In this document: positions 15,001 to 18,000 of the stretch, piece after piece
How positions within the stretch are numbered: position 1 is the stretch's first letter
Layout of the letters: each line of letters begins with the position of its first letter
Assembly (NCBI GenBank): GCA_964648715.1
Contig: CAZYNM010000004.1
Location: 12,354-76,353, forward strand
Reading direction: 5' to 3'
DNA length: 64,000 bases
Source: an uncultured Pseudomonadales bacterium
GTDB taxonomy: Bacteria; Patescibacteriota; Microgenomatia; UBA1400; PJMF01
Made by a program: the position numbers

Positions 15001-18000
15001 CAAGGTGTGATCAACGAGGTCACCTATTACCTGGGCAACCGTAAACTCATCACCGATGTACTGGGCTTACCTGTTGATGCAATCAACATGCAGATGTCTC
15101 GCCTCGAAGAACAAGGTAAGACCGCAATGATTCTGGCTTCCAAAGAGACCATTGTAGGTCTAGTTGCTGTGGCTGATACAGTCAAAGAAACCTCACAGCA
15201 AGCTGTAGCTATGCTTCAGAAGCGAGGTATCGAAGTCTACATGATCACGGGCGATAACCGTCGCACGGCTGAAGCCATTGCTCGACAAGTTGGTATTAAC
15301 AATGTTCTAGCTGAAGTCTTGCCAGAAGATAAAGCTAATGAAGTAAAGAAACTTCAACAGCTGGGTAAGAAAGTCGCCATGGTGGGAGATGGCATTAACG
15401 ATGCTCCTGCGTTAGCTCAAGCAGATCTTGGTATTGCCATGGGCTCGGGTACGGATGTAGCCATGGAAACTGGTGGCATTGTCATCATCAAGAACGATCT
15501 GAGAGACGTAGTGCATGCGATTGATCTTTCCAAGGAAACCATGTGGAAGATTAAACAGAACATGTTCTTTGCGCTCTTCTACAACGTGATGGGCATTCCG
15601 ATTGCTGCTCGTGTCTTCTTTGGATTGGGTTTAGTGCTCAAGCCTGAGCTAGCAGGTCTCGCTATGGCTTTGAGTTCAATCTCAGTGGTCGGCAACTCGC
15701 TCTTGCTCAGACTTTTCAAACCTGGCAGAAAGAACTATGTCTCAGCCTATGCGCCAGCCTTAATGGTATTAACATTTAGCTTGATGTTCTTCGAATTTGC
15801 CCGTTTCAGCTCAGGCATGGGGGCAGAAGCTAACAATTCTGAGATGGCTGAGAAAGTTCAAGTGAAGGTGAGCAAGGAAGTTGTTCAACAGGCTAAGGAA
15901 CTTTTCATCGAGAGTCGAGGGAAGGTAGCTTTTGTAGAGAGCACTCCCAAACTCTTCTTAGAAGTTGAGCCGTATGAAACCCTAGGTATTACCTTGATAG
16001 AAGGTCGGGCGTTAATTGGACCTAATGAAATGATCATTGGCTATGATGAAGCCCAGATGATGAAAGAAGAAGGTTTAATTAAAGGAGCTGGTGACGTTTT
16101 ACCAAACTTCTTTGGCCTAGATGAGATGAAAGTCACCGGTATCTTAGCCAAGACTGGAACAGAAGTGGATAAGTATCACCTCGTTTCTGCGGAGACACTT
16201 GAGCGTATCAATGGCAGTGCTGTCATTCGAACTACAGCATCACCTGACGGTTCAAGTAAAGTGTTCTATGAAGTCGCAGGTAATACGCCATCTCAGTTGG
16301 TCGCTGCTTTGCCAGAAGAATCCTTCAACCATCCTCTGACTGTAGGTGGAAAAACCTACCAACCCGTCTATATCGGAGCTGATGAGGCAGCCATGATGCA
16401 AAAGGAGAAACTTTTCAAAAAGGAAGGTGATCTGATTACTGGCTTCTTTGGTAACGATGTCATTGTCGTTGGCATCATGCCCAAGACCAACAGTCCGCTC
16501 GATACCTTCCATTACGTAAAGTCAGGATTCACAGTAAAATAAGACAAATGAAAATTCTCATTATCGAGGACGACCAGAGCTTATTACAAAATACCCAAAC
16601 TCAGTTTGCAAAAGCTGGGTTTGGTGTTGACACAGCTGAAAGTGCAGAAGAAGGCTTAAATCAGCTGGACGTGAATGAGTACGATTGTGTGGTACTTGAT
16701 ATAAACCTTCCTGATGGCAATGGATTTGAAGTGTGTCAAAAGGTTCGACAGAAAGAAAATACCACGCCGATTATTATCATGACTGCCCGTGATGCCGTGA
16801 GTGACAAAATCAAAGGTTTAGATCTAGGTGCCGATGATTATGTCTTGAAGCCAGTTGACTCTCTAGAGCTAATCGCTCGAGTCAAAGCCCTCATCCGCAG
16901 AAATAGCAAAAAACCGTTACCAGTTTTAGTGGTGGGTGATTTAGAGGTTGATACTCAAACCCGTAGGGTTAAACGAGCTGGAAAAGACATAGAGCTGCCT
17001 TCAAAAGAGTTTGCGGTGCTTGAATTATTAGCTCGCCATAGTGATGAAGTCGTGACCCGATCCATGCTGATGGAGCATATTTGGGGAAGTGATTTTGAAA
17101 CCTTTTCCAATGTGGTGGATGTGTATATTCGTAATTTACGCAGGAAGGTTGATATCGCTGGCAAGAAGAAATTGATACACACCATAAGAGGTGGCGGATA
17201 CAGTCTCTCTGATAAGCGATAGCCAAGAGTACAATATACCAATATGCCGTCAAGTATTTTACCGACACTACGCAGTCGTCTGACTCTTCTTTATATAGCC
17301 TCTACCATTGGAGTTTTTTTGCTCCTCAGTGTTTTATTTAGTAGCCTCTTGTGGGTAGCCCTTCACAACCAGATTGATCACCATATCCACATCGTTACTA
17401 CTCAGGCTGAGCAGGTAGTAAATAACTTTGATGGAAGTGAGGAAGAACTGCTTCTAAACAACCTAGTACAGATGGGTGGCATGTCTGTACTAGTAGTCAA
17501 CAATGATGGTGAAGTTCTCTTAGAAAAGAAAAGCCCTGACATTACTTCACTCGATGGAAGTGAAGTTCAAGAAATATTGGTGGAGAGTGAAAAGATTGGA
17601 CACCATCCCATTCACTTTACTATTCATGGTCAGCGATTTGGCTCGGCCACGGTTAGAGTAAATGGCGAGCCAGCTTTATTGGTAGTTGGGTATTCAATCA
17701 AGATACTCAAAGGCACCTTTTATCAAATGGCGAGCATTGTGGTGGGAGTCATCGTATTCACATTGCCATTGCTGACTTACCTTGGTTATCGACTGCTGAA
17801 AAGATATCTTTATCCACTAGAAGTGATCGCGAAAACAGCTCAACAAATAAACCACCCAAAGAAGTTGTCAAAACGTATCACGGCACCGTCACTCACATTA
17901 GAGATTTCAACTATTGTTATCTCATTTAATGAAATGCTCGGCAGATTGGAAAAGATCTTTACCAGTGAACATGAATTTTTCTCTGATGCTGCTCACACAC

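Follow-up and report, generated by a model that had tools for sequence, protein, structure and literature searches.

The DNA analysed here, a window of 64,000 nucleotides from contig CAZYNM010000004.1 of the assembly GCA_964648715.1 (an uncultured bacterium assigned to the Patescibacteriota), encodes a CopA-type P1B ATPase that has gained, by gene fusion, a membrane-anchored ectodomain composed of two modules; elsewhere the same domain is encoded by the immediate gene neighbour of copA. It is very probably an extracytoplasmic tandem domain dedicated to CopA and similar in fold to the periplasmic domains of MacB and LolC.

The pump is encoded by a complete open reading frame (ORF) at 12874..16542 (+), a single uninterrupted frame of 1222 amino acids (aa) that consists of a CopA-type P1B-1 ATPase, a ninth transmembrane helix (TM9) and the ectodomain. 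Pfam and NCBIfam recognise the ATPase core in aa 1-954 (12874..15735, +), with two HMA domains, an E1-E2_ATPase domain (aa 437-616; PF00122, E = 8.7e-63), a HAD hydrolase domain (aa 633-851; PF00702, E = 7.1e-40) and the eight canonical transmembrane (TM) helices. The two N-terminal HMA stretches are of the metal-binding CxxC type (PF00403, E = 1.9e-31), and the P1B-1 signature is present in full: CPC595 in TM4, DKTGT639, YN903 in TM5 and MALSS931, which represents the MxxSS motif, in TM6. The NCBIfam model for copper-translocating P1B ATPases (TIGR01511) reaches 643 bits at a cutoff of 397. Motifs, domains and HMA stretches of the sequence all identify the 1222-aa protein as a CopA-type P1B-1 (Cu+/Ag+) ATPase. 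P1B ATPases normally possess eight TM helices and cytosolic termini (PMC7558416). The ATPase models accordingly stop at aa 945-950 (the CopA equivalog NF007952 covers aa 3-950, TIGR01525 aa 361-945), and at the point where a CopA-type pump with eight TM helices would end in a short cytosolic C-terminus a ninth helix and about 245 more residues follow. A further peculiarity of the core is a stretch of about 130 residues between the two HMA domains (aa ~75-205, window 13100..13490) that has no family match and is an unusually long insert for a bacterial CopA.

The tail comprises 268 aa, begins at aa 955 (nucleotide (nt) 15736) and runs from the hydrophobic ninth helix through a linker into two modules, each about 100 aa long. 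An initial annotation of the window had described an extension of about 270 aa with a tandem duplication and had set its start at 15735; extension, duplication and place are all borne out, and only the start is one base off the reading frame. The four protein strings quoted in that annotation were recovered at aa 942, 1054 and 1166 (10 residues each) and at aa 959 (20 residues). The additional hydrophobic segment, seen there after the last canonical helix, corresponds to 24 residues at aa 955-978 (15736..15807, +), for which one 22-residue helix is predicted and which have a Kyte-Doolittle hydropathy of 1.63; the basic stretch RLFKPGRKN lies before it and an acidic linker after it. This juxtamembrane linker occupies 15808..15906 (+). 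Module 1, an alpha/beta domain, extends over aa 1012-1111 (15907..16206, +) and contains the conserved motifs EAQMM (16048-16062) and DKYH (16168-16179); its homologue, module 2, extends over aa 1112-1222 (16207..16539, +) with EAAMM (16384-16398) and DTFH (16501-16512) as the conserved counterparts. BLASTP aligns the two modules with 38% identity over 77 aa (E = 3e-12), and their Smith-Waterman score of 122 compares with 26.4 +/- 4.7 for 2000 shuffles, the maximum of which was 53 (z = 20). The sequences thus establish the two modules as true homologues. A profile search of the 268-aa tail against Pfam and NCBIfam returned no family, in line with the earlier remark that the domain was not recognised.

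When 1.84 billion cluster representatives were searched exhaustively with HMMER, 173 clusters emerged as the family, of which 138 reach E <= 1e-10. A second large HMMER protein search yielded family members only, a word-indexed search of 5.8 billion proteins gave 14 matches of which none went beyond generic source names, and the exact full-length protein of 1222 aa has no entry in a collection of 15 billion proteins. The family is undescribed: it has neither a Pfam nor an NCBIfam model, and its members carry only generic names such as 'hypothetical protein'. Neither a ninth helix nor an ectodomain on a P1B ATPase is described in the literature that was searched in full text, the reviews PMC11970713 and PMC7558416 included.

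Two architectures are present in the family, namely C-terminal fusions to P1B ATPases (full-length examples of 954-1125 aa) and stand-alone proteins of about 245-286 aa, in which an N-terminal hydrophobic helix is followed by the same two modules. Hidden Markov models built from the non-fused rows recognised module 1 of the fused proteins as module 1 and module 2 as module 2 in 22 of 22 cases, and the duplication is therefore older than the split between fused and stand-alone forms. Some fused pumps (~960-1110 aa) have one module after TM9, apparently with module 2 kept, so that one module seems to be enough in some lineages; such cases are the loci L028-L030, L032, L033, L035 and L037 and the proteins P0010-P0013. 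The stand-alone gene is always a same-strand neighbour of copA and lies upstream (L001, L003, L004/5, L025, L031, L034, L040) or downstream of it (L023, L024, L036, L039, L041). Stand-alone loci with archaeal labels belong to Nanoarchaeota/Woesearchaeota, Altiarchaeota, Methanoregulaceae and Methanosarcinales. In the complete genome of Methanosphaerula subterraneus, the genes for copA (3167..5803), the stand-alone protein (5776..6636) and a cupredoxin (6617..7108) overlap end to end. A domain that is fused to the pump in one lineage and adjacent to it in another follows the Rosetta-stone pattern and therefore points to a partner of the pump in both the physical and the functional sense, and its existence as a separate archaeal gene beside copA indicates that the tail behaves as a dedicated pump subunit. 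The stand-alone archaeal gene had been overlooked in the initial annotation, as had the conserved CupA-like cupredoxin neighbour described below.

The fusion itself is continuous. A Logan contig (run SRR14271365) matches window 15569-17766 at 100% identity without gaps and so spans the junction. A genome scan with one genome per species and a narrow family alignment (A3) gave 43 loci with 36 clear family members; in about 25 loci or genomes, from separately deposited assemblies, the family match is carried by one continuous ORF of ~950-1240 aa that also contains DKTGT and CPC. The junction KPG-x-x-N-[YW]-x-S...AP...F-x-EFA[RK]FSS-x-M is kept among the fused homologues. By their record labels the fused loci come from Woesebacteria (the best match, 58% identity), Levybacteria, Saccharibacteria, Moraniibacteriota, Gracilibacteria, Peribacteria, Falkowbacteria, Gottesmanbacteria, Parcubacteria and Ca. 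Solincola; most of these are lineages of the candidate phyla radiation (CPR). The distribution makes a CPR (Patescibacteria) bacterium the most likely source of the window as well. The initial annotation had warned of a missed frameshift as the source of the fusion, and this danger is removed by the identical junction in a second assembly and the recurrence of the same ORF.

Some of the related loci show features of their own. The fused ORF of a Ca. Gracilibacteria locus (L026, 1146 aa) runs through only under code 25, with UGA as a sense codon, and breaks into a 99-aa piece under code 11. In two public assemblies (L002 3627..6800 and L003 8814..10992) gene calling divides the family-linked copA into two or three genes, a split for which pseudogenisation, sequencing frameshifts or recoding could account. 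Several metagenome-assembled genomes with the fusion (L007, L010, L016, L020, L021, L028, L032; content of guanine plus cytosine (GC) 37-49%) are titled 'uncultured Gammaproteobacteria'; these titles may be placeholders, the fusion otherwise being found mainly in CPR-labelled genomes.

The tandem domain is predicted to be located outside the cell. The basic flank before TM9 and the acidic linker after it place the rest of the tail on the outer side, and the stand-alone members show the same tendency: among 60 of them, K+R is higher in the 15 residues before the anchor in 40 and the reverse applies to 5. The ectodomain is nearly free of cysteine (0.05% of residues). For a domain outside the cell the docking of the cytosolic chaperone CopZ, which the initial annotation had considered for the tail, is impossible.

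A model of the tail was calculated with AlphaFold2 from an alignment of 25 sequences and reached a mean predicted local distance difference test (pLDDT) value of 85.5 and a predicted template modelling score (pTM) of 0.74. In numbering along the tail (ext; ext ~28 is aa ~982 and nt ~15817) the TM helix spans ext 5-26 and is followed by a disordered, low-confidence linker (ext 28-42), a short helix (ext 47-57) and the two alpha/beta modules (ext 61-157 and ext 162-262). Module 2 modelled alone gave a pLDDT of 88.9 and a pTM of 0.81. When the tail model was compared with the PDB by Foldseek, the best nine matches were all periplasmic domains of type VII ABC proteins (MacB 5nik, YbbP, LolC, LolCDE), with E = 4.6e-3 and a probability of 0.97 for MacB 5nik. 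For module 2 the best eight matches were all LolC/LolE, with a query-based score (TMq) of up to 0.56, and no other fold recurs among the matches. These relatives of known fold had escaped the initial annotation. In a one-by-one scan of the 69 members of alignment A1 at E <= 1, MacB_PCD (PF12704) was the most frequent Pfam match (11/69, best E = 2.2e-5); all of these matches are sub-threshold, two that were examined singly having 17.1 and 17.3 bits at a gathering threshold of 27, and the tail of the window itself has no PF12704 match. Matches to DUF512 (7/69 members, best E = 0.0033) are weak and were taken as noise. The MacB_PCD matches place module 2 on profile positions 123-175 of 207, which we take to be the Sabre part. 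Sabre is a contiguous stretch of ~120 residues between the two halves of the Porter subdomain (PMC5985334). An hhalign comparison with eight FtsX/MacB permeases gave a probability of 85% (E = 6.6e-6) for module 1 and of 50% for module 2, and modules and permeases have the pattern hhhG-xx-A-xx-h...GD...G...V-x-G-h-L...D in common.

We consider each module, with moderate confidence, a distant Sabre-like unit. Like the periplasmic domains of the type VII ABC proteins MacB, LolC/LolE, YbbP and FtsX, the tail would be an extracytoplasmic alpha/beta domain on a TM helix of an ATP-driven membrane protein. However, it hangs on one helix instead of sitting between TM1 and TM2 of an FtsX permease with four helices, its module is tandemly duplicated, and its partner is a P-type ATPase in all 41 loci discussed below. 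No Porter subdomain was recognised, and neither an FtsX domain nor an ABC ATPase accompanies the tail, which therefore does not belong to the MacB family proper. The glutamate, the first methionine, the threonine and the histidine of the conserved motif are specific to the family and are not features of MacB.

This motif, G-x-x-E-A-x-M-M-x-x-E...G-D...F-F-G...G-x-L-x-x-T-x-T-x-x-D-x-x-H, is present in both modules and contains several candidate ligands, which in the window protein are E1059, M1062, M1063, D1099 and H1102 (module 1) and E1171, M1174, M1175, D1210 and H1213 (module 2). Among the 69 sequences of A1 the glutamate is found in 64 (module 1) and 68 (module 2), the first methionine in 58 and 47, the second methionine in 66 and 67, the aspartate in 68 and 69 and the histidine in 64 and 62, respectively. 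Histidine makes up 1.05% of the residues and is nearly confined to the two conserved positions; methionine is enriched (4.4% of residues). Another methionine, at ext ~28 just past the anchor, is moderately conserved (32/69 in one column, more within three columns) and would sit level with the outer face of the pump.

The gene preceding the chaperone and pump genes (11129..12628, +, with a likely true start at 11267) encodes a protein with an HMA domain, a DsbD_2 membrane domain (~7 TM) and a C-terminal Cupredoxin_1 domain of the CupA-like type with the ligands Cys...CxMxM. The latter is homologous to CupA of S. pneumoniae and to the N-terminal cupredoxin of its CopA (4F2E, 4F2F; E = 3.3e-10), the Cys...CxMxM ligands being aligned, and the motif CxMx[MIL] is present in 36 of 37 cupredoxin loci. 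Seven TM helices were counted in the DsbD_2 part from hydropathy and sequence. The loops rich in K/R all lie on the cytoplasmic side, and by the positive-inside rule the cupredoxin is predicted to face the outside of the cell. A putative outside-facing Cu(I) site of the CupA type would thus be the constant companion of the tandem domain. The same HMA–DsbD_2–cupredoxin protein is encoded in L002, L004-L010 and others and has cysteines in two TM helices; its DsbD-like core might keep the cysteines reduced or relay metal. A described function of this protein was not found.

The constancy of the neighbours was determined by tblastn with the window proteins over all 41 family loci. CopA is fused or adjacent in 41/41; a cupredoxin domain is present in 37/41, the four exceptions being truncated contigs; and CopZ, in the window a cytosolic HMA chaperone of 69 aa (12656..12865, +), is present in 28/41. 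A DsbA-like protein occurs in 8/41 loci, a response regulator in 1/41 and a histidine kinase in 1/41. The multicopper oxidase, the DUF3105 protein, the M48/M56 peptidase and the 189-aa membrane protein of the window were each found in 0/41, and a link of the tail to any of them was rejected; no wall enzyme recurs among the neighbours. A link to the adjacent two-component system, another docking partner suggested in the initial annotation, was dropped as well, since regulator and kinase are not conserved beside the family gene.

Several observations weigh against the picture drawn so far and against a metal site in the modules. The outside location is a matter of predicted topology. The structural match scores poorly in absolute terms (Foldseek E = 5e-3 to 0.3, high root-mean-square deviation), and HMMER profiles found no meaningful match among all PDB sequences, the best being a capsid protein for the whole tail (E = 0.11) and a cysteine synthase for the module core (E = 0.5). 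The MacB-type permease of the window (58171..59493) gave no alignment in hhalign (probability 0.1), and the hhalign test with the eight permeases is biased because most of them were fetched with a pattern derived from the tandem-domain family. In hhalign A106, M109 and D145 align to permease positions that are conserved as well (A, L, D). The G, A, GD, G and D positions and the second methionine, which aligns to leucine, are thus common to MacB-type domains and may be structural heritage instead of a metal site. Finally, a few members have Y, N, Q or I in place of the histidine.

We propose a working model for the function of the tail. TM9 would pack against the pump and hold the ectodomain of ~220 aa beside the Cu(I) release site, where each module could take up exported Cu(I) on the candidate set of Glu, Met-Met, Asp and His. 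Alternatively or additionally, the ectodomain might dock the extracytoplasmic CupA-like cupredoxin. In either case the copper would be passed on and not released in free form at the membrane surface. That the domain binds copper and that it touches the pump exit and the cupredoxin are all assumptions of the model; that it acts as an exit-side partner of the pump, which accepts exported copper and/or docks the cupredoxin, appears to us to have an even chance. The initial annotation had guessed at a regulatory, metal-sensing or partner-docking module; metal handling or partner docking is still the best guess, while CopZ and the two-component system do not fit as the partners. A more elaborate version, in which the tail is the first dedicated exit-side P1B subunit, a duplicated MacB/LolC Sabre-type module on its own helix that captures Cu(I) and passes it to the outside cupredoxin, is tentative and rather doubtful as a whole; in such a relay the cupredoxin would be kept reduced by the fused DsbD-like membrane domain.

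Four other explanations have to be weighed against this proposal. The tail could be a subunit with a structural or regulatory role and no copper binding, with TM9 packed on the pump and an ectodomain that stabilises, gates or allosterically tunes it, in the way of the Na,K-ATPase beta subunit, KdpC or CDC50, or that transmits a conformational change like the periplasmic domain of MacB. The strict fusion to or adjacency with CopA would suit an obligate subunit, part of the conserved motif falls on structural positions of MacB-type domains, and the fold relatives are mechanotransmission domains (PMC5985334). Yet such a role leaves unexplained why E, M-M, D and H are conserved in both modules of a domain that otherwise has almost no histidine, and why an outside-facing cupredoxin of the Cu(I) type is co-conserved; moreover, Porter, the subdomain thought to carry mechanotransmission, was not recognised. 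We regard a subunit of this kind as unlikely, though it is the main rival of our proposal. An envelope or cell-surface role unrelated to copper, in which the domain merely travels with copA and recruits wall or S-layer enzymes or binds surface proteins as the ectodomains of FtsX and LolC bind EnvC and LolA, is improbable. It could draw on the Sabre-type subdomains of the relatives, which are protein-docking surfaces (PMC5985334), and on the concentration of the family in CPR bacteria and in archaea with unusual envelopes, but the constant neighbours are copper proteins only (CopA, cupredoxin and CopZ), wall enzymes do not recur, and the family extends to Methanosphaerula and Methanoregulaceae, both of them known as free-living methanogens.

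A cytoplasmic tail that regulates the pump or senses metal by docking CopZ or by communicating with the two-component system would agree with the known terminal extensions of P1B ATPases, which are cytosolic and metal-binding or autoinhibitory (an extracytoplasmic one is not mentioned in PMC11970713), and with the presence of CopZ and of a response regulator/kinase pair on the flanks of the gene in the window. It is contradicted by the hydrophobic TM9 with its basic N-flank, the positive-inside pattern of the stand-alone forms, the near absence of cysteine, the extracytoplasmic location of every fold relative and the single occurrence of regulator and kinase among the loci, and is very improbable. 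We give practically no credence to an artefact in which a missed frameshift or an assembly error joins a separate downstream gene to copA. An erroneous fusion is conceivable in principle, since in some archaea (L023) the stand-alone gene lies directly downstream of copA and overlaps it, but the separately deposited assemblies with the same continuous ORF, the conserved junction and the gapless identity of the second assembly all speak against it.

The proposed exit-side partner can be compared with several known systems. In E. coli, CopA passes Cu(I) directly to periplasmic CusF, which binds it via a His-Met-Met site (PMC7558416). CusF is, as assumed here for the ectodomain, an extracytoplasmic acceptor at the outer face of the pump with a His/Met site (PMC7558416), but it is a soluble Gram-negative protein with an oligonucleotide/oligosaccharide-binding fold (OB-fold) and feeds CusCBA. 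The tandem domain is unrelated to it in sequence and fold: a CusF-type protein has an OB-fold and a His-Met-Met(-Trp) site, whereas the tail has no sequence match in the PDB and its Foldseek relatives are not OB-folds, so that only the kinds of candidate ligand (His, Met) are similar. The acceptor would here be tethered or fused to the pump, and no Cus system was found near the gene. We know of no exit-side Cu(I) acceptor in archaea or in bacteria without a Cus system. CupA and the N-terminal cupredoxin of CopA in S. pneumoniae provide a membrane-anchored copper handler for one CopA, and a homologous cupredoxin is encoded by the window neighbour; CupA, however, acts on the cytoplasmic (entry) side, whereas the cupredoxin of the neighbour is predicted outside, and the tandem domain itself is not a cupredoxin.

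The Na,K-ATPase beta subunit, KdpC and CDC50 are single-pass subunits of P-type ATPases with one TM helix and an ectodomain, and are encoded with the pump or bound to it. The stand-alone archaeal form has exactly this layout, but in HMMER searches of the PDB the tandem domain showed no sequence similarity to any solved chain. To our knowledge a single-pass accessory subunit has not been described for P1B ATPases. Their known extensions are HMA domains, His-rich tails, the C-terminal metal-binding domain of A. fulgidus CopA and the hemerythrin domain of P1B-5 ATPases. These are terminal add-on domains as well, but they are cytosolic, belong to the entry or regulatory side, and none of them follows an extra TM helix (PMC11970713, PMC7558416). 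A role of the modules in docking has a precedent in MacB, in which Sabre docks MacA and thus represents a protein-docking surface (PMC5985334).

The region upstream of the pump (2425..11199) resembles a copper island. It encodes a second P-type ATPase without an HMA domain (2425..4821, -), which could not be separated from CopA in the test of related loci, the multicopper oxidase (6000..7586, -), the M48/M56 BlaR1-like peptidase (8035..9096), the DsbA-like thioredoxin (9103..9951), which is the sole recurring one among the island genes tested, the 189-aa membrane protein without a family (9957..10526) and the DUF3105 protein (10477..11199). Farther downstream, window 28000..38000 has a low GC content (0.32-0.36) and a strong positive GC skew and may be a foreign island; a 795-aa ORF without a family is found at 30072..32459 and a Schlafen-type helicase later at 36603..38552. 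An ORF of 1290 aa at 51138..55010 (-) has no Pfam match. No Rfam family (tRNA, rRNA, riboswitch) was detected at threshold across the whole 64-kb window.

The exit of Cu(I) from a P1B ATPase and its transfer to a receiver are well documented mainly for CopA and CusF of E. coli. A familiar pump is found here with an undescribed domain or subunit on its outer face, an architecture that would surprise specialists and whose function we infer; judged from the literature searched, it would be the first subunit with a ninth helix and an ectodomain reported for the P1B class. It would also exemplify the reuse of a MacB/LolC-type periplasmic module outside ABC transporters. Through a pump-tethered ectodomain that occurs as a fusion in bacteria and as a separate protein in archaea, the poorly understood exit step becomes accessible to study, with Methanosphaerula subterraneus as a cultured host. 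An outer membrane is expected to be absent in CPR bacteria, DPANN archaea and methanogens. If the relay to the outside cupredoxin is true, these organisms would possess a complete sequence of inside chaperone, pump and outside chaperone.

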